A stretch of DNA of 64,000 nt from Syntrophales bacterium (GCA_963665615.2 CAXXQE010000001.1:201151-265150), one strand, 5' to 3'. Positions 1 to 20,086 are shown, counted from the stretch's first letter. Notes: generated by a model from the sequence alone, not told the origin. Numbers and translations are program-made.

Positions 1-121
1 GGTGTTCGTTAAAGAACGCGCCGGAGGAGCTTCCGGTTGCGAGAGCCCGGAGGCCCCTCTCTATCATTTATAATTGCGGGAAGGGACCGCGTGTCCCTTC
101 CTGCCATCATTAGGAGAAGAG

Positions 122-1255: not shown

Positions 1256-1373
1256 GTCATCGAGACAGTCGGTAGCGATGAACGCATATCCTGAAGGCCG
1301 TTGCAGCTGATTGATGCAGCGGGTTTCGCAACGACATATTTTAGATGGTTTGGGACTTTTTGGAGAAAAAATA

Positions 1374-3764: not shown

Positions 3765-3862
3765 TATCCTAAAAATTAATAAAATGGCGCTAACTCACTT
3801 ATCGGTTGTTCTATAACGCGGTTAGCGCTTCCACGATAAGGCTTTTGTATAGGAGGAAGGTA

Positions 3863-6532
3863 ATGAAGCCCATAGCGAAGTTTATCGAATATATAGATAA
3901 AGTTTTCCAAAACCCTCTTTCTTTCGAGCATGGTGATGATGCAACTACTACCAAGGTTTTTGAGAAACTCATATCCCAGGAAGATGCAGAAATTCTCATT
4001 CATTTGACCCCGGAACTGGAGTCGCCGGAGGACTTCGCAGGAAGAATCGGGGAGGATATTGAAAAGGTAAGAGAATTGTTGGAGCGGGCTGCCCATAACG
4101 GGGTCATTTTTATGGAGTACAAAAATGATCGTCCCTTCTATCGATTGGTGCCGTGGGCGCCTGGAACCCTGGAATTCTGCATCCATCCGGAAATCATCCA
4201 GATACCGGGGATGGCCGATCTTTTATATAAGTCGTGGGAAGATACGGCGTTAGATGCCTACACCAAATTGCCTAAGGGCGTTATGCGAGTCATTCCGGTT
4301 CAAGAGACCATTGATGGCATGCCGGTAAGGATGTCCTACGAGGACGCAAAAGGGATCATTGATAGGGCCTCAGATATTGCTTGTACGAACTGCCTTTGCC
4401 GGACACTGAAAAAAATGAAGGGGGAGGGCTGCGGGCATCCTATTGAAGGGATGTGCATGTATCTGAATGAATGGGCTGATTACTTCGTGAGAACGGGACG
4501 GGGGAAAAGAATTACGAAAGATCAAGCAAAAGCGACTTTAAAAAAAGCGAATGATGCGGGTCTGGTTCATCAGGGTTTTATTATAGAGAATTTTTCACCC
4601 TTTCTTTGTAATTGCTGCGGCTGTTGCTGTATGGGTTTAAGTACCCTGACGCGATTCAATGTTCCTGCAGCCATCTTAAGATCGAATTATAAACCGCAAC
4701 TCGATAAGGACAAATGCACGGCATGCGGGGCTTGTGTTGAGCGCTGCCAATTTCAAGCGCTCAAACTCGGTGATGCCATTTGCAAGCATACAGATACTGT
4801 AGCTGATGAAGTTCTCAAGGTTAAAGACAAACGAGAAAATAGATTAAAGCGCATTGATCAAAATAGTATCCTTCGGTATGACGCAGTAAAAAGAACCGAA
4901 GGGAATAAATGGGATTATGAAGATCCCGATTACCGCGTGAGGACTATCGTAGATGAGTATGGTACGAGTGGTTGTCAGACGGAATGTCCCGCTCACATTT
5001 CCGTTCAGGGTTCTATCCGAATGGTGGCTCAGGGCAAATACAAGGAAGCCCTGGCGTTGATCAAAAAGGATAATCCTTTCCCCGCCGTTTGCAGCCGTGT
5101 CTGTCCGCATCGCTGCGAATCAGCCTGTTTCCGAAACAATGTGGACGAACCTGTGGGCATTGATCTAATCACGCGCTTCATCGCCGACCGGGATCTCAAA
5201 GCAGCGAACCGCTTTGTTCCGGAGATAAAAATAAAACGCGACGAGAAAGTGGCGGTAATTGGGGCAGGCCCTGCGGGACTGACTTGCGCCTATTACCTGG
5301 CGGTCGAGGGCTACAAAGTGACCGTATATGAGAAGCAGTCGATGCTGGGGGGCATGCTCACGATGGGGATTCCCCCCTTCCGTCTGGCTCGCGATGTGAT
5401 CGAAGCAGAAATTGACATCATCCGTCAGCTCGGCGTTGAATTTAGAACGGGCGTGAATATCGGGAAAGATATCACGATCCCGCAGTTGCGCCAAGAGGGC
5501 TATAAGGCCTTCTTCATTGCTGTAGGCGCCCAGCTTAGCAAGGACATGGGCATTGAGGGCGAAGAGGCAGAAGGCGTTATCCAGGCGATTGATTTTCTGC
5601 GGGACGTGAACCTCGGGAAGAAGGTTGCCCTAGGAAATAAGGTCGTAGTCGTTGGCGGGGGAAACGTGGCGATCGACGTGGCGCGGACGGCTTTGCGAGA
5701 GGGCGCGTCAGAAGTGGCGCTTTTCTGCTTAGAATCCCGAGATGAGATGCCAGCCTGGAAAGAGGAGTTGGAAGAAGCCATAGAAGAAGGCGTCAAGATT
5801 AATCCTTCGTGGGGAGTCAAGAGGATTCTTCAGAAGGACGGCAAAGTGTCCGGTATAGAAGTCATGAAGTGCACATCCTATTTTGATGCAGAGAAGCATA
5901 TTCATCCGACCTTTGATGAAAAAACGATCCGGACCGAGCCGGCGGATTCCATCCTGGTCTACATAGGACAGTCAACGGAATGGAGCTGCTCGAGCACTTG
6001 TCAGTTGGCGGCGTTCGGGACGATCCAGGTTGATCTGATGACCCTGCAGTCGGCCGACCCCGATATCTTCGCCGGGGGCGATGCCGTAACCGGGCCCAAG
6101 ATTGTCATCGATGCCATTGCGGCTGGCAAGGAGGCTGCAATTTCCATTCATAGGTACCTTCAGGGGCGCAACCTGAAGCTGGGGCGCGAAAGGGAATATC
6201 GGGCCATCGGTCCAGCGGAAAGCGGGGGGTTTGACCGTATTCCGCGGCAGCAGGCGCCTCATATAACTCCTCAGGAGCGAATAAAGTGCTCCGGGGAGTA
6301 CCAACAGGGGCTGACGGAAGAACAGGTGCGCAAGGAGACGGAACGTTGTCTCGGATGCGGCGTTGTTATTCTGGATGAAGATAAGTGCATGGGGTGCGGT
6401 GTATGCGTGGTTCAATGTAAATTCGAAGCCTTGAAGATGGTACCGAGGGACGAAAAATTCTATCCCCCGAAAGATGGGGAAACCTTTGTGGCGGAGGTCG
6501 CTGAATACGTGGAACAAAAAAAGGTTAAGTGA
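3863..6532 (+). CDS. Fusion protein: winged-helix/poly-Cys Fe-S module + GltD/NfnB-like NAD(P)H:FAD oxidoreductase + C-terminal 2x[4Fe-4S] ferredoxin
   Basis: ORF 3806..6532. ATG 3863 follows AGGAGGAAGG. The N-terminal ~330 aa share motifs with the 6574, 7846, 10788 and 14249 proteins (CTNCLCR...C...C, then CNCCGCCC, then CTACGACVERC). The middle has GltD-type motifs (CPAHISVQG, CSRVCPHRCESAC). There are two Rossmann motifs (VAVIGAGPAGL, VVVVGGGNVAIDVA). The C-terminus has CLGCGV..CMGCGVCVVQC. Confidence 0.8.
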   Translation: MKPIAKFIEYIDKVFQNPLSFEHGDDATTTKVFEKLISQEDAEILIHLTPELESPEDFAGRIGEDIEKVRELLERAAHNGVIFMEYKNDRPFYRLVPWAPGTLEFCIHPEIIQIPGMADLLYKSWEDTALDAYTKLPKGVMRVIPVQETIDGMPVRMSYEDAKGIIDRASDIACTNCLCRTLKKMKGEGCGHPIEGMCMYLNEWADYFVRTGRGKRITKDQAKATLKKANDAGLVHQGFIIENFSPFLCNCCGCCCMGLSTLTRFNVPAAILRSNYKPQLDKDKCTACGACVERCQFQALKLGDAICKHTDTVADEVLKVKDKRENRLKRIDQNSILRYDAVKRTEGNKWDYEDPDYRVRTIVDEYGTSGCQTECPAHISVQGSIRMVAQGKYKEALALIKKDNPFPAVCSRVCPHRCESACFRNNVDEPVGIDLITRFIADRDLKAANRFVPEIKIKRDEKVAVIGAGPAGLTCAYYLAVEGYKVTVYEKQSMLGGMLTMGIPPFRLARDVIEAEIDIIRQLGVEFRTGVNIGKDITIPQLRQEGYKAFFIAVGAQLSKDMGIEGEEAEGVIQAIDFLRDVNLGKKVALGNKVVVVGGGNVAIDVARTALREGASEVALFCLESRDEMPAWKEELEEAIEEGVKINPSWGVKRILQKDGKVSGIEVMKCTSYFDAEKHIHPTFDEKTIRTEPADSILVYIGQSTEWSCSSTCQLAAFGTIQVDLMTLQSADPDIFAGGDAVTGPKIVIDAIAAGKEAAISIHRYLQGRNLKLGREREYRAIGPAESGGFDRIPRQQAPHITPQERIKCSGEYQQGLTEEQVRKETERCLGCGVVILDEDKCMGCGVCVVQCKFEALKMVPRDEKFYPPKDGETFVAEVAEYVEQKKVK

Positions 6533-6573
6533 GCCTGTCGCAATCAATAGCCGTTGCATGAAGGAGAAAGCAA

Positions 6574-7827
6574 ATGGGTAGCTGGTTAACACCTCTGCAA
6601 GTACGAGATGCCTATGATGCGCTCACGCGCAAACTGAGGTATCCCAGTTCCGTAACACTTCGAAAGATTCTGGAGCTGGCTATGAGCTTGGAAGAAGCGG
6701 AACTTCTTCTAGCGATGCCAGGAACCGTTGATTCACTTGCCGCAAAGTTAAACCGCGACCAGAAACTTGTCAAAGGTCAGATCGACAGAATGTTCTCGGC
6801 AGGGCTCATTATGGAGTATCCGAATCCGGACGGTACGGTGACCTATACGCAGCCCACGCCGTTCTGGAGTATCGAGTCGACCAGCGACCAGATGCTTTGG
6901 GAGATTGGAGCTCGCTATATTCCAAAATCGGGACGGATTACGGCACAGGATTTATGGGGTCGGTTCGACCAGAAAACGGAGCAGCTATGTGAGCTCTGGA
7001 ACAAATTCTTTTATGAAGAGTGGTACCGGTGGCAGCGTCCGAACGAATTGGTCCATCGTAATGTGGATATGCTCGGCGGCTCGGAGGGCTTGGCGCAAAC
7101 ATTCGGAATGCTTCCTGCCGCCCTGGCTCTGGAAAAGAGCGAAGCCCTTGGAACCGAGATTTTAGAACCATTCGATATGAGAGTGTTTGCAAGACAAGGT
7201 GAGAAAGGTGGCGGAATGTATTGCCGCTGTTGCAGCTGCCGGACGAGGAATAGGGGATGTGATGTTCCACTCTGGATTTGCGGCACTTTTTGGGATGGTC
7301 AGCCTGGCAGAGAAGCCTTAATTGATCTTAATGACAGAAGGGGAACGCTCCACAAGTATTCAGCTGAAGAGTGGCTGGAAATCATGATCCGAGCGGAAGA
7401 AGATCAGATGGTTGTCCATATGGGTGATGCGTGGCTGGTTGCTTGCACCTGCTGCCGCGACTGCTGTAATTGGCTTACGCCTCTTCTCATGTATTCCGAG
7501 GAACCATGGGAGGGGGTCCAGGCTTCGCCATATCGTGCAGTGGTTAACAACGATGTATGCGAAGGATGCACGAAGAATTGTATTCCCCGCTGTGCCTTCA
7601 GGGTAATGAAGGGGGTTAAGGATCCCTCTACCGGCAAGATAAAGCCTTATGTTGATCCCGACAAGTGCGTCGGATGCGGTCAGTGCGTTATCGGATGCAG
7701 GGTTCAGGGTGCCATCAAACTGGAGGTGGCGGATAAAGCCGGCGCTCATATCCCCGAGATGTGCGGCAGGTCAAAAGTGCCGGAAAGCATTTTGGGCCCT
7801 AATCCAATCATTCCGCGTTCCCGATAA
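6574..7827 (+). CDS. Uncharacterised winged-helix / poly-cysteine / di-ferredoxin protein, paralog 1
   Basis: 417-aa ORF with AAGGAG RBS. Motifs: LEEAELLLAMPGTV (HTH-like), CRCCSCRTRNRGCDVPLWIC, CTCCRDCCNW, CEGCTKNCIPRC and CVGCGQCVIGC. Confidence 0.8.
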   Translation: MGSWLTPLQVRDAYDALTRKLRYPSSVTLRKILELAMSLEEAELLLAMPGTVDSLAAKLNRDQKLVKGQIDRMFSAGLIMEYPNPDGTVTYTQPTPFWSIESTSDQMLWEIGARYIPKSGRITAQDLWGRFDQKTEQLCELWNKFFYEEWYRWQRPNELVHRNVDMLGGSEGLAQTFGMLPAALALEKSEALGTEILEPFDMRVFARQGEKGGGMYCRCCSCRTRNRGCDVPLWICGTFWDGQPGREALIDLNDRRGTLHKYSAEEWLEIMIRAEEDQMVVHMGDAWLVACTCCRDCCNWLTPLLMYSEEPWEGVQASPYRAVVNNDVCEGCTKNCIPRCAFRVMKGVKDPSTGKIKPYVDPDKCVGCGQCVIGCRVQGAIKLEVADKAGAHIPEMCGRSKVPESILGPNPIIPRSR

Positions 7828-7845
7828 ATGACTTAAGGAGAGAAA

Positions 7846-9093
7846 ATGAGAAGTGTAATGCTGACGCCCCTTTCGGGGAGAGACGCTTATGATACTCTGA
7901 CGCGTAAACTGGATTATCCTACTTCCGTTACGCTTCGGCGAATTTTTGAGCTTGCGATGAGTCTGGAGGAAGCCGAGCTCTTGGTCGAGATGCCTGCTAC
8001 GGTTGAGGCTCTTGCAGAGAAGCTAAACAGGGAACCAAAAATCGTCAAAGAACAGATTGAGAGACTGTATTGGATTGGACTACTGATCGAGACACTGAAT
8101 CCGGACGGTTCCGTAACTTACTCGCAGCCTGTTCCAACGTGCATCGAAACCGTCAGCGACAATATGATGTATGCCATCGGGGGCAACTATGCGCCTAAGT
8201 CCGGAAAGACGACGGCGCAGGATTTGTGGAGTCGCCTGGATGATAAAACATTAAAAATATGCGATCTCTGGAATAAGTTTTTCTATGAAGAGTGGTATCG
8301 ATGGCAACGCGTTAATGAGTTGGTTCATCGCAATATCGAGATCCTCGGCGGTTCGGCGGGTTATGCTCGCGCCTTCGGAATCATGCCTGCCGCAAGGGCC
8401 TTGGAGAAAAGCGAGGCAATGGGCACCGAGATTCTTCCGGAATGGGATTTGCGTGAGATAGCGAGAAAGGGAGAAAAAGGGATATACAGCCGTGTCTGTA
8501 CTTGTCGGACCCGAGCCAAGGGATGTGATTTTCCGCTCTGGGTCTGCGGGGCATACTGGGACGGCATGCCGGGCAGAGATGTCAATACGGAAGTCCGAGC
8601 CGACAGACGGGGCCATCTCCACAAATATTCCGGTGAAGAATGGCTGGAGATAATGCTTCGCGGTGAAGAGGACATGATGATGGTCCATATGGGTGACGCA
8701 TGGATGGTTGCCTGCAACTGCTGCCGGGACTGCTGCAACTATATTGATCCTCTTAGTCGTTATGCTGAGCCATGGGAGGGCGTCCATCCGTCGCCTTATC
8801 GTGCGATTGTCAATTGCGAGGTGTGTGAAGGCTGCACCCAAGACTGTTTCCCCCGGTGTGCTTTCAAGGTCATCGAAGGGAAGAAGGATCTTTCTGACGG
8901 TGAGATAAAGCCTTATGTCGATCCCGACAAGTGTGTCGGGTGCGGCCAGTGTGTTGTTGGTTGCAAGGTGCAGGGCGCCATCAAAATGGAACTGGCGGAA
9001 AAGGCGGGGGCCCATGTTCCATTGATGGGTGGCAGGGCGAAAGTTCCGGGAAATATACCGGCCTTTAAACCTAAAATTCCACGTCCGCGATAG
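7846..9093 (+). CDS. Uncharacterised winged-helix / poly-cysteine / di-ferredoxin protein, paralog 2
   Basis: 415-aa ORF with AAGGAGAG RBS. Collinear with paralog 1 over its full length, with the same Cys motifs (CTCRTRAKGCDFPLWVC, CNCCRDCCNY, CEGCTQDCFPRC, CVGCGQCVVGC). Confidence 0.8.
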   Translation: MRSVMLTPLSGRDAYDTLTRKLDYPTSVTLRRIFELAMSLEEAELLVEMPATVEALAEKLNREPKIVKEQIERLYWIGLLIETLNPDGSVTYSQPVPTCIETVSDNMMYAIGGNYAPKSGKTTAQDLWSRLDDKTLKICDLWNKFFYEEWYRWQRVNELVHRNIEILGGSAGYARAFGIMPAARALEKSEAMGTEILPEWDLREIARKGEKGIYSRVCTCRTRAKGCDFPLWVCGAYWDGMPGRDVNTEVRADRRGHLHKYSGEEWLEIMLRGEEDMMMVHMGDAWMVACNCCRDCCNYIDPLSRYAEPWEGVHPSPYRAIVNCEVCEGCTQDCFPRCAFKVIEGKKDLSDGEIKPYVDPDKCVGCGQCVVGCKVQGAIKMELAEKAGAHVPLMGGRAKVPGNIPAFKPKIPRPR

Positions 9094-9377
9094 ACAGTAA
9101 AATGAGATTATTCATAATAAAGTTGAAATTGATTGTGAAAAATAAGTCGGATTTAAATCCTCTTTGCAAAAAATATCTCTGCGAAAAGTAACTTGCGAAC
9201 AAAAGCAAACGTCCTATGCATGTAGAGACTATCACGCAGCTTTTGAATATTCGAAATTTTCACGCCGAGAAATATCAGGCAGCGACTGTAAAGACTTTTT
9301 CGTTGCCTTGGTGTGGGGAAAGGAACGGCCGCCGGTGTGTGCCCGATGCGGTCGCATTCAATGCTCAAGAGTTCAAA

Positions 9378-10145
9378 ATGCCACCTATGAAAAAGCTTGT
9401 TGAAGAATCCGCAGAAAAATTCGGAAACAAAACTTTTCTATATTTTAAAAACCAAAAAATATCCTTCATGGAAGTCAACAGGATCTCTAATCTGGTCGCA
9501 AGCGCTTTTCAAGACAAAGGCATCCGGAAAGGGGACCGGGTGGCGTTGATGTTAACGAACCGTCCCGAGTTCATTTATCTATGGTTTGGTCTCAATAAAA
9601 TTGGGGCCAGTGTCGTGCCAATCGATACAGAATTGGCCGCATATGAAGTTGAGTACATCTTGAAGCATTCTGAGGCCAAAATGGTTGCTACGGAGGAACG
9701 CACGTTGGCAAGGATACAGGATGCTCCTAAAATTGCACCTGGTATTGATAAAGTCGTCCTCCTTGATGGCGTTGGAGAAAACAAAAAATGGGTATCATTC
9801 ACATCGTTTATTGCAGGTCAGCAGGATTCATTCGAATCGGTTGATATTGATAACAGTACTGAAGCGGCCATTTTATATACCCGTAAAACAGGTGCACTTA
9901 AAGGCTGCATTGTTGATCAGTTTTATTATTTGAATATGGGAGAGCTATATCTGCGGGTAAATAAAATAGATAAGCGACGGGGGATCATCATCACTCTGCC
10001 AGTTTCCAATTTGGATGCGCAGGGCATTCCAATAGTTGGAGCATGTCTTATCGGGGCACGTATCGTTTTGCTAGACCGCTCCCAGTCCGATACTCTGAGT
10101 AAAACTAACAGGAGAAGGGAGCTAACCAAATTAATTTCATTTTAA
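9378..10145 (+). pseudogene. Truncated AMP-dependent acyl-CoA synthetase/ligase (N-terminal ~255 aa only)
   Basis: The N-terminus matches adenylate-forming ligases (KKLVEESAEKFGNKTFLYF..ISFMEVNRISNLVA..GDRVALMLTNRPEF). The P-loop is degenerate (AAILYTRKTGALKG instead of YTSGTTGxPKG). The ORF stops after about half the usual length and is followed by IS debris. Confidence 0.6.
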
Positions 10146-10384
10146 AAAGTATCACAACGCGCCGTGGATACACGTGAGAGGAGAGAAGTTCAAGAAAGCA
10201 CAAGGCTCAAAAGATAGAATGAACTGCCAACCATACGCCACTGCAAACAATGATTGAATCTCATGTGGATCATGACACAAAAAAGACAAGTCAGACGGGA
10301 AAATGGCTACGCCCACTGAAGCGATATCCCTGGCCTCGTTTGTAAAAGATCAGTTCAACGGCATCTATTCAAATCTTTAAACAG

Positions 10385-10609
10385 TTTTGGACTCGCTGAA
10401 AGAGTGGATTGCCGAGATCAAAGCCAATCTCCCGGCCTTCGTTCATTGAGTTGGCATACAAATTCATCAAGAGGAGGCATTATCTGCGGAACTATTTCCG
10501 ATCCAAAAAAAACGATGCCATTTCTGAAGGCATCATCCATAAAATAATGCGACTCATACGAATGGCCTATGGGTTCAAGAATGTCCAATATTTAATCAAC
10601 CAATATTGA
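10385..10609 (+). mobile_element. ISL3-family transposase C-terminal remnant
   Basis: The short ORF 10409..10609 ends ..NDAISEGIIHKIMRLIRMAYGFKNVQYL. This resembles the conserved ISL3 C-terminus (..TNgxxEGxNnKIKxiKRxaYGFrNfxnf). Upstream frames are broken by stops and no intact transposase is present. Confidence 0.5.
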
Positions 10610-10636
10610 GGAGGTCTCAATCCGAGGCTTCATTTT

Positions 10637-10754
10637 GAATTCTTTAGCGAGGGCGTTCCCCGCTGCTTGAGGCGGGATAAACGAGCGCATAAGGACAAAC
10701 CATCTACCTTGGGAATCGGAGATTCGCCGGAGCTTGCGCCGGTGAGTCTTCAAT
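10637..10754 (+). repeat. 118-bp dispersed repeat, copy A
   Basis: Alignable end to end with the copies at 30848, 37428(-), 41140, 42963 and 46199. Shared blocks: GAATTCTT.AGCGAG, a GC hairpin, TAAACGAGCG, GGGAATCGGAGATT, GCCGGAGCTTGCGCCGG and GAGTCTTCAAT. It ends 33 nt before the start codon at 10788. Confidence 0.85.
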
Positions 10755-10787
10755 ACAAATGATCTGTAACTTATGAGGAGGAACTAA

Positions 10788-12039
10788 ATGAGCGGATGGC
10801 TGTCGCCCCTACCTGTTAGAGATGCGTATGATGCAATAATGCGTAAACTCGATTACCCTAGTTCTGAGACGCTTCGGAGGATTCTGGAACTATCAATGAG
10901 CCTGGAGGAAGCAGAACTGCTGCTCGCGATGCCCGGAACGGTTTCATCGCTAGCTGAGAAGGTAAATCGCGGACAGGAGGCAGTGAAAAACCAGATTGAG
11001 AGAATGTTCTGGGTTGGTTTAATTATGGAACAAGCGAATCCGGATGGCACGATTACATACTCACCGCCGTCTCCTGTATGGTGCATCGAAACGGCTAATG
11101 ATCAGATGATGTGGGCCGTTGGAGGAAACTATGCGCCCAAGTCAGGAAAGACGACGGCTCAGGATTTGTGGAGTCGTTTGGATGATATAACATTAGAAAT
11201 ATCAGATCTCTGGAATAAGTTCTTCTATGAAGAATGGTATAGATGGCAACGTACAAATGAGCTGGTGCACCGTAATGTAGATATCCTCGGGGGGGCAGCA
11301 GGCCTGGCCCGATCATATGGGCTCATGCCTGCTGCTTTATCGCTGATAAAAAGCGAAGCGCTTGGCACTGAAATTCTTCCCGACTGGGATTTGCGGGAAA
11401 TCGCAAAAAAAGCTGAAAAGGGCATCTACTGTCGTGCGTGCACCTGCCGAACCAGGAATATGGGATGCGATGTTCCCCTCTGGTTATGCTGTGCCATTTG
11501 GGATGGCATGCCGGGCAGAGATGCTGGTGTTGAAATAAAAGCGGATAGGCGGGGGCAACTCCATAAATACTCCGGTGAAGAGTGGTTGGAAATCCTCATC
11601 CGTGGCGAAGAAGAACATATGATGGTCCATACAGGTGACTCATGGATGAGTGTCTGCAATTGTTGCCGGGATTGCTGCAACTGGCTTGAGCCCCTTAGAT
11701 TATATACCGCCGAGCCATGGGAGGGGGTTCACCCTTCACCCTATCGTGCGGTTGTCAATAGAGAGGTGTGCGAAGGCTGTACCCAGGACTGTTTCCCCCC
11801 GCTGCGCATTCAAGGTGATTGAAGGCGAAAAGGATCCAGCCACCGGTAAAGTGAAACCCCATATTGATCCCGACAAGTGTGTCGGGTGCGGTCAGTGTGT
11901 CGTGGGTTGCAAGGTTCAGGGTGCCATCAAAATGGAACTGGCGGAAAAGGCGGGAGCTCGCATTCCCCTGTTGGGTGGCAGGGCAAAAGTTCCGGCAAGT
12001 ATCATTGGTCCGAGACCAAAAATTCCGAGCCGGAGATAA
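10788..12039 (+). pseudogene. Winged-helix / poly-cysteine / di-ferredoxin protein, paralog 3, broken by a +1 frameshift
   Basis: ORFs 10788..11822 and 11650..12039 together are collinear with paralog 2. The frame changes at a C6 run (11795-11800), where paralog 2 has C5. Removing one C restores ..CFPRCAFKVIEG.. and a 416-aa protein. Confidence 0.85.
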
Positions 12040-12101
12040 TTATAGGAGTCAGCAGTGACGTGGACAGATTCACTATCGCTCAGGCGTCCTCGCATTGAAG
12101 G

Positions 12102-14063
12102 ATGAGTATGGAGAAAATAATGGATTTCACAAATTTATTTTCAAGTATCAAAGTCAAAAATATTGAACTCCGTAATCGTATCGTTATGCTTCCAATGAGT
12201 ACAAACTATTTCGACGAAGACGGAACCGTTGGAGATCGGTTTATCAACTTCTTTGTAGCCAGGGCTAGAGGTGGTGTCGGGCTCATTGATATTCCTTTTA
12301 GTCCAATAGATGATGGCGCTCATAATGAACCCGGGCTTTTTCACAGCCGCTTTATTCCCGGCATTCATAACCTGACTTCCCGTATTCACGACCATGGCGC
12401 CAAGGTAGCAGCACAATTGATTATCTCTTATAAGGCGATGCTTCATAATGGCATCGCAGAAGTCATTGGCCCTTCTGCGATTTTTAATAAGATGATGCGC
12501 TGTGTTCCGAGAGAATTGACGAAGCAGGAAATTCATTCAATTGTTAAGGCATACGGCGCAGCTGCAGCACGAGCCCGTGAGGGCGGATTCGATGCAGTTG
12601 ATGTTCTTGTCGGAGCTGGCTATCTGTTGAATCGCTTCCTTTCACCAATCAGTAACAATAGGACGGATGAATATGGTGGCAATCTTGAGAACAGAATGAG
12701 AATTATCCTGGAAGTGATCAAAAGTATCAAAATGGAAGCCGGCGATGATTTCCCCATATTTTGCCGACTCAATGTGGAAGAGAAAATGCCGGGAGGACAC
12801 ACCATTGAGGATTCGAAAGAGGTTTTGAGAGAACTGGAAAGAAATGGCATTGATATGTTCATTCTTTATACCGGTTGGCACGAATCCCCCATCCCTACGG
12901 TAGGACCATTTGTTGCAAAAGGTGCTTTTTCCGACCTCGCGGAGAAGATGAAAGAGACTGTTCAATTGCCGGTTGTTGCGTCGAATAGAATCAACGATCC
13001 ATTCATCGCAGAAAAATTACTGTCAGAAGAAAAGGCAGATCTGATTGGCATGGCACGTGCGCTATTGGCAGATCCGGAATTTGCAAATAAAGCTCGTGAA
13101 GGCAGGGTTGATGAGATTGTGCCGTGCATAGCCTGTGGTGAATGTTTGGGGCAACTCTTGCAGGCTGCCTATAAGACGGAGTCATTTCAATCAACGGCAG
13201 AGAATTCATTATGCAGTGTTAATCCAATAGCAGGAATGGAAGAACAGCATAGAGGAATTAATCAAAAAACAAAGAAAACGGTTTACGTTATTGGCAGCGG
13301 TCCAGCAGGCATGACGGCTGCAATGACCGCTGCGTCCAGAGGCCATCGTGTTGAATTATTCGAAATAAATAGCAGCCCCGGCGGCAGATTGTGCTCGGCG
13401 TCGATACCGCCAAGTAAAGGAGAAATACAAAGCCTCATTAAAAGCTTATATGCACGGGCAGTGAAATCAGGAGTATCTTTTCAATTCAATACGGAATTGA
13501 TGCCGCAAGATGTCAGGAAGGAGGATACTGACGTTTTAATTATCGCACTTGGCGCAGAGCCCTTTGTCCCTCCAATTAAGGGGATTAATAGACCGAATGT
13601 CTTTCTCGCGGAAGATGTATTAACGGGAAAAGATAGGGTGAGCGGACGTATCATCGTAATCGGCGGGGGACTGGTCGGCTGCGAGACTGCTGAATATCTT
13701 GTAGAAAATGGAATAGCTGATGTTACTGTCATAGAAATGTTAGGGCGTCTGGCCGATAATGTTTCATCTGCAAACCGACCATTTCTTCTCGAGAGATTAA
13801 GAAAAGCAGGACTGAAAATGTATACCAATATTACCGTTACTGAGATTACGGATACGGGCATAGTATATGTGAGCGAGACAGGTTCAGGAACGATGCCGGC
13901 TGAATGTGTTGTTCTTGCTGCAGGCTTTAAGCCAGATATTAAGAGGGTCGAATCATTCGAAATAGATGGACCATACAAGACCATCGCAATTGGTGACTGT
14001 GTAAAAGCGCGTACTATTAAGGATGCTATTGGAGAGGGATATTCAGCTGGAGAATCAATTTAG
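12102..14063 (+). CDS. Old-yellow-enzyme / 2,4-dienoyl-CoA reductase (FadH)-like FMN + [4Fe-4S] + FAD/NAD(P) oxidoreductase
   Basis: 653 aa. The N-terminus is an OYE-type TIM barrel (IELRNRIVMLPM..., ..NRTDEYGG..). The Cys cluster is CIACGECLG...C. The C-terminus has two Rossmann motifs (VYVIGSGPAGMTAA, IIVIGGGLVGCE). This architecture matches FadH/enoate reductases. Confidence 0.85.
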   Translation: MSMEKIMDFTNLFSSIKVKNIELRNRIVMLPMSTNYFDEDGTVGDRFINFFVARARGGVGLIDIPFSPIDDGAHNEPGLFHSRFIPGIHNLTSRIHDHGAKVAAQLIISYKAMLHNGIAEVIGPSAIFNKMMRCVPRELTKQEIHSIVKAYGAAAARAREGGFDAVDVLVGAGYLLNRFLSPISNNRTDEYGGNLENRMRIILEVIKSIKMEAGDDFPIFCRLNVEEKMPGGHTIEDSKEVLRELERNGIDMFILYTGWHESPIPTVGPFVAKGAFSDLAEKMKETVQLPVVASNRINDPFIAEKLLSEEKADLIGMARALLADPEFANKAREGRVDEIVPCIACGECLGQLLQAAYKTESFQSTAENSLCSVNPIAGMEEQHRGINQKTKKTVYVIGSGPAGMTAAMTAASRGHRVELFEINSSPGGRLCSASIPPSKGEIQSLIKSLYARAVKSGVSFQFNTELMPQDVRKEDTDVLIIALGAEPFVPPIKGINRPNVFLAEDVLTGKDRVSGRIIVIGGGLVGCETAEYLVENGIADVTVIEMLGRLADNVSSANRPFLLERLRKAGLKMYTNITVTEITDTGIVYVSETGSGTMPAECVVLAAGFKPDIKRVESFEIDGPYKTIAIGDCVKARTIKDAIGEGYSAGESI

Positions 14064-14248
14064 ATGAGCAACTGGATCCAGATTTCAGTATGAACCTCCA
14101 TCGTCTGCATATAACGGCATTTCGAAGGAAGTAGAATATCACGGAATACGCAACGCGAAAGTAAAAAATACTAAGCGTCACCATATATGCGTCGTCCCGA
14201 ATTGGAAAGGAAGCAGCCTAGGCTGCAATGCATCGGAAAGGATAAGAA

Positions 14249-15292
14249 ATGCAAGAAGAAAATATCACAACGCAAAATCATGACCTCTATGTTGAGCTGG
14301 CCGCCCGGGTGAAGAGCCCTGATTCGACGATTATTCCCAAATTGTTTCATATACTGGCGGATGAGACCGATGCGAAAATTCTCCTGGCGCTTCCCGGCAA
14401 TGTCTCTGATCTATCGAGCCAATTGGGCCTTGACCCTTCCGATGTTGAAGCCAGGCTCGAAGGTCTCTTTAAAAGGGGTGTTGTTTTTCGCAACAAAAAG
14501 AAGTCCCCGGTCGTGTATAAAATGGCCAAGGACGCCATGCACCTGCATGATTGCAGCATGCAATGGCGAGGAAGTGGCAAGGCGTTCAGAGAACTCTGGC
14601 GGCAGTGGGGTGAAGAAGAGTGGCCTGAGACCGCTAAATTGGGAAAAGGCAAGAGGCCCGTCACCAGGCTTCTTGCAGCCGACATCTGGATTGACGCCCC
14701 CAAGGATAAAATTTTACCGTTCGACAGTATTCGAGAGATCATCACGCAAGCCAGGAGTCTGGCTGTTATGCCCTGTGCCTGCCGAATCAAATATGGCGGC
14801 AAGTGCGGGCACCGCATGGAGGGATGCATCGTGATGAATGGTTCCGCCGATTACAATATCGAACGGGGGACAGCGAGGAAAATAGACGCGGCAGAGGCCA
14901 TGGACATTATTGAAAAATGTGAGGAGGACGGCCTGTTGCATCTTACGGGCGCCAATTCCCAGTCGGATCCCGGTCCGATCATCTGCAATTGCTGCCCCTG
15001 TTGTTGCATAGCACTTCCCTTGATTCTGCGGGATCAATACTGGGTTGATCCGTCGCGTTTCTGCGCGCAGATAGACCGGGAGACGTGTAAAGGCGGTGAT
15101 TGCAGGCTATGTTACGAGCGCTGCTATTTTAACGCTATTGAGACAGCAGAAGATGGCAAGGCGACGGTCATCAAAGAGAAGTGTACAGGCTGCGGATTGT
15201 GCAAGAGAAAATGCCCTGCAGATGCGATTACGTGGATCGAGGAACGTACCCCGGATTTCGTGCCGAAGGTCAACAGCGAAAAACTCTATTAA
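14249..15292 (+). CDS. Divergent member of the winged-helix / poly-cysteine / di-ferredoxin family, paralog 4
   Basis: 347 aa. Motifs: ETDAKILLALPGNVSDLSSQLG (HTH-like), CACRIKYGGKCGHRMEGC, CNCCPCCC, CKGGDCRLCYERC and CTGCGLCKRKCP. Its Cys spacing matches the N-terminal module of the 3863 fusion. Confidence 0.8.
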   Translation: MQEENITTQNHDLYVELAARVKSPDSTIIPKLFHILADETDAKILLALPGNVSDLSSQLGLDPSDVEARLEGLFKRGVVFRNKKKSPVVYKMAKDAMHLHDCSMQWRGSGKAFRELWRQWGEEEWPETAKLGKGKRPVTRLLAADIWIDAPKDKILPFDSIREIITQARSLAVMPCACRIKYGGKCGHRMEGCIVMNGSADYNIERGTARKIDAAEAMDIIEKCEEDGLLHLTGANSQSDPGPIICNCCPCCCIALPLILRDQYWVDPSRFCAQIDRETCKGGDCRLCYERCYFNAIETAEDGKATVIKEKCTGCGLCKRKCPADAITWIEERTPDFVPKVNSEKLY

Positions 15293-15374
15293 TGCGGTTG
15301 CGGAGATAACCACACCATAGAATGTCGGCGGGTTGAGATGTTGAAATATGAATAGGTAACTGAGGAGGAGAAAA

Positions 15375-16481
15375 ATGGAGATTACAGCGGCGGTAGTAAG
15401 AGGTCCGGGGAAAGAAGATCCTTTTCAGATTGAAAAAATTGAACTGGAGGATCCGAGAGATCACGAAGTGCTCGTGAAAATAGCTGGGGTTGGATTGTGT
15501 CATACAGACCTGTTCGTAAAAGAAGCAATGTCATCGGCAGGGATGTTGCCCTGGGTATTAGGTCATGAAGGTTCCGGAGTGGTGGAAAAAGTTGGGAGCG
15601 CCGTGACCAAAGTCGTTCCCGGAGACCATGTCGTCATGAGCTTCAGCTATTGCGGTCAATGCAAAAATTGCAAAACCGCGTTTCCTGGGTATTGCAAGGA
15701 CTTTTTTCCACAGAATGCGGCCGGTACGCGCATGGATGGCTCGTTCACCATGCACAAAGGTAATGAGAATGTTTACGCGCATTTTTTTGGTCAGTCCTCC
15801 TTTGCCAGTCATGCTATCGCAAATGAAAGAAATATCGTTAAAGTCGATAAGAATGTCCCTATTAACTCATTAGGGCCTCTGGGTTGCGGTATTCAGACTG
15901 GAGCGGGAGCCGTTATCAATTCCCTTAAGGCGCGACCCGGAACATCCATCGCCGTTTTTGGGGCAGGAGCAGTGGGTCTAAGCGCTATTCTTGGAGCGGT
16001 TGTCTGCGGTTGCACGAAGATCATGGCGGTTGACATTCTGCCTGAGCGCTTAAAATTGGCGCAAGAATTGGGTGCGACACATTTGATTAATGGTAAAACG
16101 GCAAACGTGGTCGATGAGATCAAGAAGATTACCGACAGTCTTGGAGCCGATTATTCCGTTGAGTGTACGGGCAATCCCAATGTGATCTGTCAGGCCATCG
16201 AGTCGGTGGGAGTATTAGGCACATGCGGTTTGGTGAGCTTGATTGCCGCTGGCTTGGACATAAAACTCGATTGGACTGTCATCACCGCTGGTCGTAACGT
16301 TCGTGGTATTATAGAGGGCGACTCCATGCCTGATGTCTTTATCCCTCACATGATAGAGCTATATAAGGCAGGGCGTTTCCCGTTCGATAAGCTGATTACA
16401 TATCGGCCCCTCTCCGAAATAAACAAAGCCGTTGAAGATACCCACACAGGAAAAGCCGTTAAGGTCATACTGCTACCATAG
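15375..16481 (+). CDS. Zn-dependent aryl-alcohol (benzyl-alcohol, XylB-like) dehydrogenase
   Basis: 368 aa. Motifs: GLCHTDL, GHEGSGVVEKVGSAV, FFGQSSFA, LGPLGCGIQTGAGAV, FGAGAVGLSA and GRFPFDKLIT. From memory, these align closely with Pseudomonas XylB. Confidence 0.85.
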   Translation: MEITAAVVRGPGKEDPFQIEKIELEDPRDHEVLVKIAGVGLCHTDLFVKEAMSSAGMLPWVLGHEGSGVVEKVGSAVTKVVPGDHVVMSFSYCGQCKNCKTAFPGYCKDFFPQNAAGTRMDGSFTMHKGNENVYAHFFGQSSFASHAIANERNIVKVDKNVPINSLGPLGCGIQTGAGAVINSLKARPGTSIAVFGAGAVGLSAILGAVVCGCTKIMAVDILPERLKLAQELGATHLINGKTANVVDEIKKITDSLGADYSVECTGNPNVICQAIESVGVLGTCGLVSLIAAGLDIKLDWTVITAGRNVRGIIEGDSMPDVFIPHMIELYKAGRFPFDKLITYRPLSEINKAVEDTHTGKAVKVILLP

Positions 16482-16585
16482 TCAGAATCTGCTGAAGCCT
16501 TGAGTGAATCATATACTACTCATGACTTTTGCTGCCATGCGTTATTTTAAAATATATATAACGAAATAGAGGAGGAAGACAGCCG

Positions 16586-19240
16586 GTGAAGAAAATTACA
16601 TTCAAGGTGAATGCAGTTCCGAAGGAAGTCATGGTTGATGAAAAAGCCGTTCTCCTCGACGTGCTTCGGAAAGGGCTGCATTTTACTGGCGCGAAACAAT
16701 CTTGTGATCGCAAGGGTCAATGCGGCGCCTGTACAGTGATTGTCAACAAAAAAGCCGTTAAATCGTGCATTACAAAAATGAAGGATCTGGAAGGGGCCGA
16801 TGTCATTACTGTTGAAGGACTGGGTACGCCGGAAAACCCCCATTTAATTCAGGAGGCCTTTGTGCTGGCCGGCGCTATTCAGTGCGGTTTCTGTACGCCC
16901 GGAATGATCATGGCTGCCAAGGCCCTGCTTGATGAGAACAACAATCCTTCGGTGGAGGAGATCAAAAAGGCCTTTCGTCGCAATCTGTGCCGCTGTACCG
17001 GTTACAATATGATTATCAATGCTGTACAACTTGCAGGCCAATTCCTGCGAGGCGAGACAACACCTGATCAGCATCGTCCTGCGAAGAGCGATCCGCCCAT
17101 CGGCTTTTCCCATCCGCGGCCGTCCGGTTATGTGAAAGCATGTGGCGCGGCGAAATACACGGATGACTTCTTTGTTGAAGGGTGTCTCGAATTAGCGGCA
17201 GTGCGCAGTCCGCACTTCAATGCGAAGCTCATATCGATTGATGCTACTGACGCCGAAAAAATGCCCGGAGTGGTCGGTGTTATAACAGCCAAGGACATCA
17301 AAGGAAATAATAACGTTGGTATGCTCATTAAGGATGAGCCCATCTTCTCCACGGATGTCTTGCCGGTTCTGGGGTCGCCGATTGCTGCCGTTGTCGCCCT
17401 GACAAGAGAACAGGCGCAGGCGGCTGCGAAGGCAGTCAAAGTTGAGTATGAGGTGCTTCCGCGGATCGCCACGGCGGCTGAAGCGCTGGCCGAAGGCGCT
17501 CCGCAGATTCAACCGGATTTCCCGAACATGGTCTATCCTGTTGTACAAATCAAGGGGGATGCGGAAAAGGCGCTGGCTTCTTCTGCTCACGTCGTCGAGG
17601 CTCGTTTTTCTACGCCCCTGGTTCATCAAGCCTCTCTCGAACCGGAATCAGCGCTGGCGTATATGGATGGCGAGGGAGAAGATGCCCAGCTTGTGGTTTA
17701 CGGTCGATCAATCTGGATCCATTATCACGCGACTCTGCTTTCAGAAGCAGTCGGCTGGCCGAATGTACGCTATATTGAGCCTTATGTCGGCGGCCAGTTC
17801 GGAATTAAAAGTGATATCACTACAGAGGGGATGGCTGCAGTTGCCGCGCTTCACTTTAAACAACCCGTCCGCTATGTAGCTAGCTTGGAAGAAACCATGG
17901 TAATGACCACCAAGAGACACCCGTATGACATGACGGTCAAACTGGGGGCCGATGAAAATGGCAAATTTACTGCATTCCTGATGGATTTTATCGTCGAAAA
18001 CGGCGCCCATGCATCAACGGGTCCGGTTATTTTGGATCGCTCCATCGAGATGTTAAGCGGTGCTTATGATCTCCCAACTGTTAAGGCCAACGGAAAACTC
18101 GTTTATACGAATGATGTTTGGGGTGGTTCAGCTCGCGGTGCAGGGCCGCCACAGGCAAATTTTGCTGTGGAGGGGGCAGTCGAATTGATGGCTGCAAAGT
18201 TGAAGATGGATCCTTGTGAACTTCGGATAAAGAATCTTCTCTATCCGGGCGGTACGACGTCCACAGGCGAAACGGTCAGTGAATGGGCGGTTCGCGGGTG
18301 TTTTGAGCGCGTCAAGCCGCTCTATGAAAAGGCCTGTCAAGAGGCCAAGGCCGCAAAAAGCAATGGGATCCGCCGCGGAGTCGGGATTGCGGGCTGCAGC
18401 TTCGGTATCGGTGGCGGCAATGACACATCTCACATGGCTGTTGAGCTTGAAGAAGATGGCGGCATCACGATTTACGGTGCTGTAGCCGATCCGGGCGAAG
18501 GCAATGATTGTATGTTAACCCAGATCGGTGCGCATTGCATGAATATACCCATGGCTAAGATCAGGCTCGTTGTCCGTGACACGGAGGGGACGCCGGACGC
18601 CGGTATCGCTGCTTCCTCCCGATTGACCTATATGGGGGGGCAGGCACTGGTGAAGGCCATAGGCATGCTCAAGGAAGCCATGAAAGAAACGGGCGCCAGG
18701 ACACGCTCAGAATTGGAAAAGGCCGGCAAGCCTGCCCGCTATATGGCGGGGCACATCCTGACCCACACGGGTCTCGATAAGACAACCGGTCAAGGTCAGG
18801 CGTGGGCATCCCGTCTCCATGGCGTCCAGATGGCTGAAGTTGAGGTCAATACCGAGACGGGTGAGGTAAAGGTTATAAAAATGATAAACGCATTCGATGC
18901 AGGAACGGTTATTAATCCTCTAGCCTTTATCGGTCAGATTGAGGGCGGTGCGGATCAGGGGGCAGGGTATGCCCTTCGAGAGCACTTTGTTCTTGGGAAA
19001 ACCAAGGACTGGATTACATATAAGTTCCCCACCATGGCGACATCTTTCCCGATGGAGAATATATTGATCGAATCTCCACGGCCCGATGGTCCTGTTGGAG
19101 CGACCGGTATGGGGGAGGCGACCATGGTGGCCACGCATCCGGCTATTGCCAATGCAGTTTTTAACGCCATCGGGGTTATGATCAAGGATCTGCCCATTAC
19201 GCCGGATAAGGTTTTGACCGCATTGGGCAAGAAGAAATAA
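16586..19240 (+). CDS. Molybdopterin aldehyde oxidoreductase, single-subunit MOP type (2x[2Fe-2S] + Mo-binding domains)
   Basis: 884 aa with a GTG start after GGAGGAAG. The N-terminus has CDRKGQCGACTV...C and the second 2Fe-2S motif QCGFCTPGMIM..CRCTGY. It is followed by a xanthine-oxidase-family Mo domain. Length and order resemble the Desulfovibrio gigas aldehyde oxidoreductase. Confidence 0.85.
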   Translation: MKKITFKVNAVPKEVMVDEKAVLLDVLRKGLHFTGAKQSCDRKGQCGACTVIVNKKAVKSCITKMKDLEGADVITVEGLGTPENPHLIQEAFVLAGAIQCGFCTPGMIMAAKALLDENNNPSVEEIKKAFRRNLCRCTGYNMIINAVQLAGQFLRGETTPDQHRPAKSDPPIGFSHPRPSGYVKACGAAKYTDDFFVEGCLELAAVRSPHFNAKLISIDATDAEKMPGVVGVITAKDIKGNNNVGMLIKDEPIFSTDVLPVLGSPIAAVVALTREQAQAAAKAVKVEYEVLPRIATAAEALAEGAPQIQPDFPNMVYPVVQIKGDAEKALASSAHVVEARFSTPLVHQASLEPESALAYMDGEGEDAQLVVYGRSIWIHYHATLLSEAVGWPNVRYIEPYVGGQFGIKSDITTEGMAAVAALHFKQPVRYVASLEETMVMTTKRHPYDMTVKLGADENGKFTAFLMDFIVENGAHASTGPVILDRSIEMLSGAYDLPTVKANGKLVYTNDVWGGSARGAGPPQANFAVEGAVELMAAKLKMDPCELRIKNLLYPGGTTSTGETVSEWAVRGCFERVKPLYEKACQEAKAAKSNGIRRGVGIAGCSFGIGGGNDTSHMAVELEEDGGITIYGAVADPGEGNDCMLTQIGAHCMNIPMAKIRLVVRDTEGTPDAGIAASSRLTYMGGQALVKAIGMLKEAMKETGARTRSELEKAGKPARYMAGHILTHTGLDKTTGQGQAWASRLHGVQMAEVEVNTETGEVKVIKMINAFDAGTVINPLAFIGQIEGGADQGAGYALREHFVLGKTKDWITYKFPTMATSFPMENILIESPRPDGPVGATGMGEATMVATHPAIANAVFNAIGVMIKDLPITPDKVLTALGKKK

Positions 19241-19265
19241 TAAGCCATGCAAAAGGTTTTGTTTT

Positions 19266-19616
19266 GTGAGCGCAAACGAACCAAATACCTTTCGGGTACC
19301 TTACTTCCGAACGATAGCAGGTGTTAAGGTTCAGTTCGATGGGCAGGGGTTCTTTATGAATCCCGCCCAATGGACGGAAGAAATCTTTGAGGTATTGGCC
19401 CATGAGGCGGGAATAGAAGAGATCAGTGAAAAACACTGGGCGGTGGTTCGCTTTATTCGTAAATTCTATACGGAACGGGGAACGCCCCCTTTGAATCATC
19501 ACCTTAAAGTCGGCACTGGTTTCAGTTTGACAGAACTGGAAACATTGTTCCCCGGCGGCATAAAAGATGGCGCCCGCAAGCTTTCTGGCCTGCGGGGGCC
19601 AAAGGCTTGTAACTGA
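19266..19616 (+). CDS. TusE/DsrC-family sulfur-relay-like protein (single C-terminal Cys)
   Basis: 116 aa with a GTG start. Family hallmarks: F.DGQGFFMNPAQWTEE, HWAVVRFIRKFY and the C-terminus ..GLRGPKACN, with one Cys at the antepenultimate position. The second DsrC Cys, about 10 residues upstream, is absent. Confidence 0.75.
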   Translation: MSANEPNTFRVPYFRTIAGVKVQFDGQGFFMNPAQWTEEIFEVLAHEAGIEEISEKHWAVVRFIRKFYTERGTPPLNHHLKVGTGFSLTELETLFPGGIKDGARKLSGLRGPKACN

Positions 19617-19735: not shown

Positions 19736-20086
19736 TGGTGGAGGTGGCGGGAATCGAACCCGCGTCCGAAAATATTCCACTGGAGCGTCTACATGCTTAT
19801 CCTTCGTTTTGCATTCGCAACCGGCAGCTCCCGAAGGCGGGATTTACCGGAAACTATCCTGTAAGGGGTTCGCCTTTCCGTTTACAGGCATCGTGGATCG
19901 GCTATCCTGCAATTATGACGCCCTTTACCGGCCTTGCAGGCGAGACCGGGAGAACGTAGCCGTCTAAGCGGCTAAAGCGTAATCGTAATTTGCGCTTAAA
20001 TGTTTTCTGCCTGTTTTACGAGGCCTGGCAGCACCTCGGCATGCAACTCGCAGCTTCACTATCCCCGTCGAAACCAGTGCACCCCC
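19736..20086 (-). ncRNA. ssrA: tmRNA (SsrA)
   Basis: On the minus strand, the 5' end reads GGGGGUGCACUGGUUUCGACGGGGAUAG. The 3' end reads GGACGCGGGUUCGAUUCCCGCCACCUCCACCA. The internal tag reading frame GCA AAU UAC GAU UAC GCU UUA GCC GCU UAG encodes ANYDYALAA. It lies downstream of smpB. Confidence 0.95.

Follow-up and report, generated by a model that had tools for sequence, protein, structure and literature searches.

A widespread family of anaerobe proteins with a nine-cysteine domain of novel fold, and its five modules in a Syntrophales gene cluster

Introduction

What do five cysteine-rich protein modules, encoded within 11.5 kb on a single strand, do for the bacterium that carries them? 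The locus lies in a 64,000-nucleotide stretch of a Syntrophales genome (GCA_963665615.2 CAXXQE010000001.1:201151-265150), called here the window. An initial annotation had described, between positions 3863 and 15292, a five-fold repeated module composed of a helix-turn-helix-like segment, two cysteine blocks (ii and iii) and two ferredoxin motifs, and had put it forward as a candidate for such a system, undescribed and redox-active, in the window. We report that the five modules belong to a large, widespread and uncharacterised protein family, of which the window is one instance with no special status, so that the finding concerns the whole family and not the five-fold expansion alone. The ferredoxin, winged-helix and GltD-like domains of these proteins are known families; what is new is a nine-cysteine (nine-Cys) domain of novel fold. 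We tentatively read the family as soluble, acidic, multi-cluster iron-sulfur (Fe-S) proteins acting as ferredoxin-like electron carriers or adaptor subunits, a reading held with somewhat less than even confidence and weighed below against its alternatives.

Results

Five homologous modules in one gene string

An open reading frame (ORF) listing placed all five module genes in a single co-directional (+) gene string, 74-19616. The modules, named c1 to c5, were found where the initial annotation had located them:

3863..6532, +: c1, an 889-amino-acid (aa) fusion protein (ORF listing, Pfam/NCBIfam, alignment, motif scan)
6574..7827, +: c2, a 417-aa stand-alone module of the 415-aa subfamily, starting 41 nt after c1
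7846..9093, +: c3, a 415-aa stand-alone module, starting 18 nt after c2
10788..12039, +: c4, a module interrupted by a +1 frameshift and read as two ORFs (alignment)
14249..15292, +: c5, a 347-aa stand-alone module of the most widespread subfamily (alignment, homologue searches, AlphaFold2)

They could be aligned over their full length with MAFFT, with c4 repaired and c1 trimmed at residue 345. Pairwise identity is 67-74% among c2, c3 and c4, which are direct repeats at the DNA level (62-78% identity), and 19-28% when c1 or c5 is compared with the others. The profile that scored c1 (P0169) at E=3.3e-42 included c1's own segment, so the independent evidence for homology of c1 is its 27.5% alignment to c5. 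The 415-aa subfamily (c2-c4) is marked by a conserved NKFFYEEWYRWQR insertion and is rare (41 proteins, 8 metagenome loci). The frameshift already reported in c4 is due to one extra C, the sequence reading C6 at 11795-11800 where c3 has C5 at the same place. Without this extra C, c4 is an intact 417-aa protein that keeps every conserved cysteine, so that the frameshift is either an error in sequencing or an inactivation of very recent date. Scanning all six frames for the motif, we found no additional copy in the window; the same 831-kb contig encodes a sixth paralogue outside it (P0042, 87% identical to c5).

A nine-cysteine core domain without known counterpart

The module consists of three parts: an ArsR/MarR-like winged helix, an alpha/beta domain of ~170 residues that holds nine cysteines, and a ferredoxin domain. 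In c5 these correspond to residues ~28-95, residues ~96-272 and nt 15086-15214, respectively. Pfam and NCBIfam recognised two things only, the C-terminal Fer4 motifs of the modules and the Fer4_20, Pyr_redox_2 and Fer4 domains of c1. Module residues 1-270 belonged to no family in either database, c5 giving sub-threshold TrmB and ArsR matches.

Block ii (nt 14774-14827 in c5; C176, C178, C186 and C193) follows the pattern C-x-C-R-x5-9-C-x6-7-C, the spacing after the arginine being 5 to 9 residues and not 6 to 10 as first proposed. Block iii (nt 14984-15007; C246, C248, C249, C252 and C253) has five family-wide cysteines in the pattern C-x-C-C-x2-C-C. The extra Cys of the denser variant CNCCPCCC, also described initially, is less general: this tenth Cys (C251) was present in 82% of the 412 homologues aligned to the domain hidden Markov model. 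The nine others are each 96-100% conserved in the same set, and together with the eight cysteines of the two ferredoxin motifs they bring the conserved total to 17. The Arg following C-x-C (98%) and a helix Glu, Glu225 in c5 (91%), are conserved in these homologues as well. His231, Arg206 and Gly207 reach at least 90% in a 90-sequence alignment, yet fall below 85% in the 412-homologue set; Asp101 also reaches at least 90% in the 90-sequence alignment.

The C-terminal domain is a 2x[4Fe-4S] ferredoxin domain, with Fer4_6, Fer4 and Fer4_21 matches above cut-offs. Two ferredoxin motifs, the first non-canonical, had been described for every module; this holds for c2, c3, c4 and c5, and c1 carries a single motif (CTACGACVERC). 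Nor is the first motif C-x2-C-x3-C-x3-C throughout, as had been stated, since in c5 it reads C-x4-C-x2-C-x3-C (C280, C285, C288, C292); the second is formed there by C312, C315, C318 and C322.

The AlphaFold2 model of c5, built on the 90-sequence alignment, is compact and confident (predicted local distance difference test score, pLDDT, 92.8; predicted template-modelling score, pTM, 0.89). Foldseek comparison with the PDB matched residues ~28-95 to ArsR/MarR/CzrA winged helices (probability 0.92-1.0 for CzrA, MarR, AbfR2 and 1sfx), and superposed residues ~270-335 on the 2x[4Fe-4S] domains of PorD, OorD, HdrA and HydB with a root-mean-square deviation of 1.2-1.9 Å. The middle domain modelled alone (c5 residues 96-272; pLDDT 88, pTM 0.85) is predicted to alternate strands with helices, and the Cys blocks would sit at or just after strands. 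Foldseek found nothing similar to this model among PDB folds (best E=2.5, TM<0.2) or in BFVD. When 33 isolated domain sequences were compared with Pfam at E<=5, scattered single chance matches were obtained, none of them recurrent, and single-sequence searches of the PDB returned ferredoxin domains only. The sole profile match of the domain among PDB sequences, designed PPR repeats, was rejected as a repeat-summing artefact, because every matching stretch had an i-Evalue >100. The nine-Cys core domain has a fold without known counterpart and falls outside every family tested (Pfam, NCBIfam, PDB sequence, PDB fold). The initial annotation, which could place blocks ii and iii in no characterised family, had named two outcomes that would speak against it, a family placement and cysteines that vary among homologues; the searches gave no placement and the cysteines are essentially invariant, so neither outcome was obtained.

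A large family under misleading names

A profile of the middle domain, run against 1.84 billion representatives, matched 3,156 clusters at E<=1e-3 and 1,929 at E<=1e-10 (clusters at the 50% identity level). Most of the 150 best matches listed are 320-380 aa long with the domain at the same position, the shorter ones being apparent fragments. When one genome per GTDB species was scanned with a degenerate pattern, the family was confirmed in at least 547 loci. The 80 loci listed belong mainly to Desulfobacterota (Desulfobacterales, Desulfomonilaceae, Syntrophaceae/Smithellaceae, Desulfarculales), other lineages among them being Actinomycetota, Pelotomaculum, Ca. Abyssobacteria and Poribacteria; Chloroflexota members occur among the protein matches. 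Isolates with family members include Desulfosarcina alkanivorans and Desulfonema ishimotonii. Across orders, identity is 40-55%.

We found no description of the family in the searchable literature; a paper on the benzene "Magic" cluster proved unrelated. The redox system proposed initially is not specific to the window. A family that comprises thousands of sequence clusters across strictly anaerobic bacteria, keeps 17 cysteines invariant and has a core that Pfam, NCBIfam and the PDB lack merits a domain definition; its present source names ("4Fe-4S binding protein", "PreA subunit", "RnfB", "PorD") are generic or misleading.

The winged helix is acidic

Residues ~28-95 share the fold of ArsR/SmtB and MarR proteins (CzrA 1r1u, MarR 3voe) and carry a signature, LF.MLAD.T.A.ILLAL, which we take to be ArsR-like. 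The family could on this basis consist of redox-sensing transcription factors, the winged helix binding DNA, the Fe-S clusters sensing the redox state and the neighbouring catabolic operons being controlled. The N-terminal ArsR/MarR/CzrA fold match (Foldseek probability 1.0, TM to target 0.54-0.61), weak TrmB and ArsR profile matches and the highly variable neighbourhoods described below, as expected for regulators, are in line with this. However, the profile scores were obtained with c5 only, c1-c4 giving no TrmB or HTH_metalloreg match, and they lie under curated cut-offs (TrmB 19.7 vs 25.6; HTH_metalloreg 21.2 vs 55). Unlike in ArsR and MarR, the domain and its recognition helix are acidic, and the polypeptide continues into Fe-S domains, in c1 into a flavoenzyme as well. 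Charge computation on 90 members gave a mean net charge of -1.3 for the winged-helix domain and -6.9 for whole proteins. The helix-3 (recognition helix) segment averages -0.4 and is positive in 22% of members, and the basic DNA-contacting recognition helix of ArsR/MarR proteins was not found.

This acidity argues against a regulator, as do the presence of three copies in one tight operon with an enzyme fusion, the recurrence of the fusion to an NADPH-flavoprotein, and the dedicated TetR regulator often found directly upstream and co-transcribed. The four or more clusters that these proteins would hold are also well above the number that Fe-S sensors are known to carry. A regulatory role appears very unlikely, and on this point we join the initial annotation, which had preferred a catalytic or electron-transfer role to that of a plain regulator; the choice between those two, discussed below, is inferential.

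The flavoprotein fusion and comparison with known systems

The module at 3863 is fused to a flavoprotein, as had been described. Residues 1-~335 of c1 form the module, with a winged helix, a nine-Cys domain (CLCR...C...C; CNCCGCCC at nt 4607) and the lone CxxCxxCxxxC motif; they are followed by Fer4_20 (residues 369-446, 2x[4Fe-4S]), an FAD/NAD(P)H Pyr_redox_2 domain (462-755) and a C-terminal Fer4 (834-865). Fer4_20 (70 bits) and Pyr_redox_2 (100 bits) score above cut-offs and mark a GltD/NfnB-type protein; against NF009410 c1 reaches 477 bits, under the cut-off of 516. Residues 369-755 share their Fer4_20 plus FAD/NAD(P) architecture with NfnA (of NfnABC), StnC (of StnABC) and NfnB (of NfnSL), and the closest solved relatives are NfnA 9bov_A (356 bits), 9n5u_A (337), StnC 8oh5_C (320) and NfnB 5jca_L (241). 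In NfnABC and StnABC this flavoprotein module feeds electrons from NADPH into a chain of Fe-S clusters (PMC11829005, PMC10482914). The closeness of c1 to these NADPH-input modules suggests that the fusion wires NAD(P)H into the nine-Cys module. Unlike in NfnABC and StnABC, the flavoprotein of c1 is fused N-terminally to a nine-Cys module and C-terminally to a small Fer4, and, in contrast to these systems and to NfnSL, the window contains no NuoE/NuoF-like or PyrK-like partner genes. The fusion to a GltD-like flavoprotein occurs in three distinct protein clusters, c1, P0271 (834 aa) and P0319 (Syntrophobacter), and thus also in lineages other than that of the window.

The C-terminal ~60 residues of the module, with their two Cys motifs, are 30-39% identical to PorD, OorD, the HdrA C-terminal domain, RnfB and the FwdF polyferredoxin, but the repeat structure of the polyferredoxin is lacking. 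Like 2x[4Fe-4S] ferredoxins, the family proteins are acidic, soluble and present as many paralogues per genome; unlike in these, the ferredoxin makes up about one sixth of the protein, and the ~270 residues before it have no counterpart there. HdrB CCG domains and the catalytic subunit of ferredoxin:thioredoxin reductase (FTR) combine electron-transfer clusters with adjacent C-x-C motifs and vicinal Cys pairs and have more Cys than one cubane needs, and the clustered cysteines of the family, with C-x-C and vicinal pairs, recall them. Their spacings, CX31-39CCX35-36CXXC and CPC...CPC...CHC, are however not those of the family. The HdrB/GlcF motif CXnCCGXmCXXC was absent from the alignments and Pfam CCG gave no match at E<=5; the CPC..CPC..CHC motif of FTR was likewise absent, with neither a FeThRed_B Pfam match nor a PDB fold match. 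Like the NrfC, PsrB and DmsB subunits, members of the family directly flank a molybdenum/tungsten bis(pyranopterin guanine dinucleotide) (Mo/W-bisPGD) catalytic subunit (see below), and their plausible cluster number is similar, but compared with NrfC/DmsB the fold differs, a winged helix is added, and there are two ferredoxin motifs instead of four. No Fer4_11 or NrfC-type profile matched, and 2vpw_B, an NrfC protein, matched the ferredoxin part only (E=0.028).

Enzymes encoded next to the modules

The same gene string holds the following genes between and after the modules:

9216..10780, +: AMP-forming acyl-CoA ligase pseudogene, the first 309 aa intact, then remnants across three frames
12102..14063, +: FadH/NCR-type Fe-S flavoenzyme belonging to the OYE (Old Yellow Enzyme) family, FMN and FAD/NAD domains, 653 aa (Pfam/NCBIfam)
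15375..16481, +: gene of the same co-directional cluster (ORF listing), presumably Zn-dependent alcohol dehydrogenase-like, as judged from its translation
16586..19240, +: MOP-type molybdenum aldehyde oxidoreductase, 2x[2Fe-2S] and molybdenum cofactor in a single chain (NF045668)
19266..19616, +: TusE/DsrC-family protein, 25 nt after the molybdenum enzyme (TIGR03342, 61 bits, above the cut-off of 53.5)

The flavoenzyme at 12102 is about equally similar to naphthoyl-CoA reductase and dienoyl-CoA reductase (best PDB matches NCR 6qkg, 313 bits, and FadH 1ps9, 309 bits). The MOP-type enzyme matched NF045668 with E=2e-221 and 737.6 bits, under the curated cut-off of 1100, and no FAD-subunit gene was seen nearby.

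Gene neighbourhoods in other genomes

Loci are designated here by L numbers. In 82 loci, neighbour genes were called with a codon-model caller and clustered by BLAST; class counts within ~6 kb refer to 80 loci anchored on c5-type genes. The counts rest on our own gene calls, and the loci are phylogenetically related to one another. Neighbours were heterogeneous across the 82 loci, the setting being purely housekeeping in one Desulfobacteraceae lineage, and this ruled out the single conserved partner gene that was sought in the 80 loci. More than one family member was found in 11 of the 80 by tblastn and in ~15-17 by clustering, so that the multiplicity observed in the window is met elsewhere too. 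The interleaving of modules with an OYE/FadH-type reductase, on which the initial annotation had also relied, is real in the window, where the reductase gene lies between c4 and c5, but it is not general, an OYE being near the module in 2 of the 80 loci.

Three loci (L012, L024, L015) contain tight operons in which the gene of a Mo/W-bisPGD enzyme stands between two module genes at distances of 7-28 nt, and the module adjoins the same enzyme in Desulfonema ishimotonii and Desulfosarcina alkanivorans. One or two family members flank this enzyme at the following positions:

L012 2292-6725; L024 3682-8072; L094 8001-11484; L092 8001-12546: Mo/W-bisPGD enzyme with flanking module(s)

The enzyme is a cytoplasmic protein of 730-750 aa with an N-terminal Fe4S4 domain and no signal peptide, and its best PDB match is FdhF (142 bits). 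This uncharacterised Mo/W-bisPGD family is itself a candidate for a new Mo/W enzyme system.

A layout comprising hypA, hypB, the Mo/W enzyme, TetR, module and divergent module was found, whole or partial, in five Syntrophaceae-type loci. Overall hypA is present in 8 and hypB in 7 of the 80 loci, in several lineages, both above curated cut-offs:

L013, L036, L062, L055, L060, L067, L070, L079 (e.g. L062 474-2764): hypA/hypB directly upstream of or beside members

Some of the hypA-hypB loci also contain a 745-aa cytoplasmic Mo/W-bisPGD enzyme and a TetR regulator. MinD/Mrp-like P-loop ATPases recur as well (c3-type operons, L010, L017, L020), and a cobW-type GTPase lies near the Desulfonema copy. 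Such neighbours would suit a metallocluster scaffold, carrier or maturation factor, whose Cys-rich domain would carry Fe-S or Ni-containing clusters for a time and then hand them over to other enzymes. However, the ATPases are generic: the MinD-like ATPase of c3-type operons was considered as CooC or ApbC, and NCBIfam gave only generic MinD/Mrp similarity. Moreover, 90% of the loci have no maturation genes nearby, and we know of no scaffold with a permanent ferredoxin domain or a fused NADPH-flavoprotein. This role seems highly improbable; we keep it in view because the hypAB and MinD-like neighbours are explained by no other reading.

Other associations involve flavoenzymes. An acyl-CoA dehydrogenase or HpaB-like flavoenzyme lies directly upstream of the module in L001 and L002. 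A c3-type operon made of module, SDR, unknown gene, MinD-like ATPase and acyl-CoA dehydrogenase is conserved in L086-L088, and its order recurs in L083, where an SDR takes the place of the acyl-CoA dehydrogenase; L087 has a separate GltD-like gene upstream of its c3-type module. TetR, a Rieske protein and a classical OYE, or NMO, accompany the module in L096 and L092. In L090, a homologue (57% identity) of the protein encoded at 15375..16481 comes after a c3-type module. L083 contains orthologues of c2 (78% identical) and c3 (79%) in the same order, which suggests non-redundant partners; the two sit there with OYE, BcrAD/HGD-D, AOR and XDH-type genes.

In L086-L088 and L083, an acidic helical protein of 227-235 aa with a basic C-terminal tail is always encoded between the SDR and the MinD-like ATPase (e.g. 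L088 8484-9191). It has no Pfam or NCBIfam match, and no homologue in the window.

Electron carrier, adaptor or catalyst

From the domain anatomy, conservation, fusion and recurring neighbours observed, we infer a cluster content, a direction of electron flow and a set of partners. Under the carrier or adaptor reading that we favour, the C-terminal ferredoxin domain would hold two [4Fe-4S] clusters and the nine invariant cysteines one or more additional Fe-S centres, most likely a pair of clusters close to each other, while the acidic winged helix would serve for docking or structure and not for DNA binding. In c1, NAD(P)H electrons would pass via the GltD/NfnA-like FAD and the Fer4_20 clusters into the protein's own module. 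c2 and c3 are probably co-transcribed with c1; these two and c5 would exchange low-potential electrons, giving or taking them, with neighbouring cytoplasmic oxidoreductases, candidate partners being the FadH/NCR-type reductase (12102) and the FAD-less MOP-type aldehyde oxidoreductase (16586). Many paralogues per genome, a variable context and acidity are the pattern expected of ferredoxins and flavodoxins, and would count in favour of carriers. Occasional fusion to an NADPH-flavoprotein and occasional operons with redox enzymes are also expected of ferredoxin-type carriers.

Several observations weigh against this proposal. A flavo- or Mo-enzyme of the tested classes lies within ~6 kb in 12 of the 80 c5-type loci, and most members stand alone, some of them amid housekeeping genes (argG, argH, HPPK, tal). 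A simple carrier has no obvious need for an extra body of 270 residues with strongly conserved non-Cys residues, and the hypA-hypB linkage is left unexplained.

The main rival, a possible but rather unlikely one, is that the nine-Cys domain is itself a catalytic site fed by the ferredoxin domain, the family reducing or oxidising a small molecule or a protein thiol/persulfide by a chemistry like that of a cluster beside vicinal cysteines, as in HdrB or FTR. In c1 the domain stands at the far end of the wire formed by NAD(P)H, FAD, Fer4_20 and ferredoxin motif, which is the usual place for an active site and counts for catalysis. Its five cysteines in eight residues, with two vicinal pairs, are too many for one cubane, and polar residues are conserved beside them (the Arg after C-x-C and the helix Glu; His231, Arg206-Gly207, Asp101). 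Mostly stand-alone members that keep 40-55% identity across orders are what an enzyme with its own function would show, and the cluster of the window includes a TusE/DsrC-family protein. On the other hand, 90+ loci yielded no conserved pathway context or candidate substrate, and Pfam gave no match to CCG, FTR or another catalytic Fe-S family. The several divergent paralogues per genome and the sandwiching of the Mo/W enzyme fit subunits better.

A further proposal, which we judge improbable, is that the nine-Cys domain binds a metallocluster of a new kind and that the family is a new low-potential redox class. In the window c1, as the NADPH-oxidising partner, would act with c2 and c3 as the missing physiological electron donor of ATP-independent reductases of the FadH/NCR type that work on enoyl-CoA or aryl-CoA, possibly via flavin-based bifurcation. 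The site could hold two Fe-S clusters that are fused or not cubane, or else a cluster containing Ni, an option prompted by the recurrent hypA-hypB neighbours. For ATP-independent FadH/NCR-type reductases the literature has not yet identified the natural donor (PMC13365417, PMC12016498), and naphthoyl-CoA reductase clusters list NuoEFG-like genes, not a nine-Cys protein (PMC6849830).

Should the nine-Cys site hold an unusual cluster, Fe-S biochemistry would gain a new cofactor-binding fold. If the proteins are dedicated carriers, they could tie the NAD(P)H pool of sulfate reducers and syntrophs to their FadH/NCR-type reductases, acyl-CoA dehydrogenases and cytoplasmic Mo/W enzymes, and would bear on what reduces ATP-independent aryl-CoA reductases in vivo. 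The window is a good natural test bed, because it brings together within 16 kb the entry point for NADPH electrons, three modules that are probably co-transcribed and two enzymes that may be their partners.

Other features of the window

The first genes of the cluster (74-3764, +) encode a Ycf48-like BNR-repeat protein and then an RND transporter of the HAE3/MMPL type, and the related locus L083 contains DUF1302 and DUF1329 genes; this set is often found in degraders of hydrophobic substrates. Decay of the acyl-CoA ligase and the c4 frameshift suggest erosion of that part of the cluster. Promoter and terminator scans stayed at chance level.

Beyond the cluster lies a transfer-messenger RNA (tmRNA) gene, ssrA, at 19736-20086 (-), with the tag peptide ANYDYALAA and its 3' end toward the 74-19616 cluster. 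The guanine-cytosine content of the redox cluster is 0.45-0.53, against mostly 0.50-0.58 in the rest of the window. Insertion of a genomic island at ssrA may account for the redox cluster. Positions 1-21000 showed no repeat of the tmRNA 3' end, which would put the island's other boundary upstream of the window.

Two minor observations may be added. The succession of a MOP-type molybdenum enzyme and a TusE/DsrC-family, sulfur-relay-like protein is an unusual pairing. Further along, two very large PilY1-domain proteins of 956 and 982 aa are encoded 3 kb apart at 48918-51788 and 55079-58027 (+).

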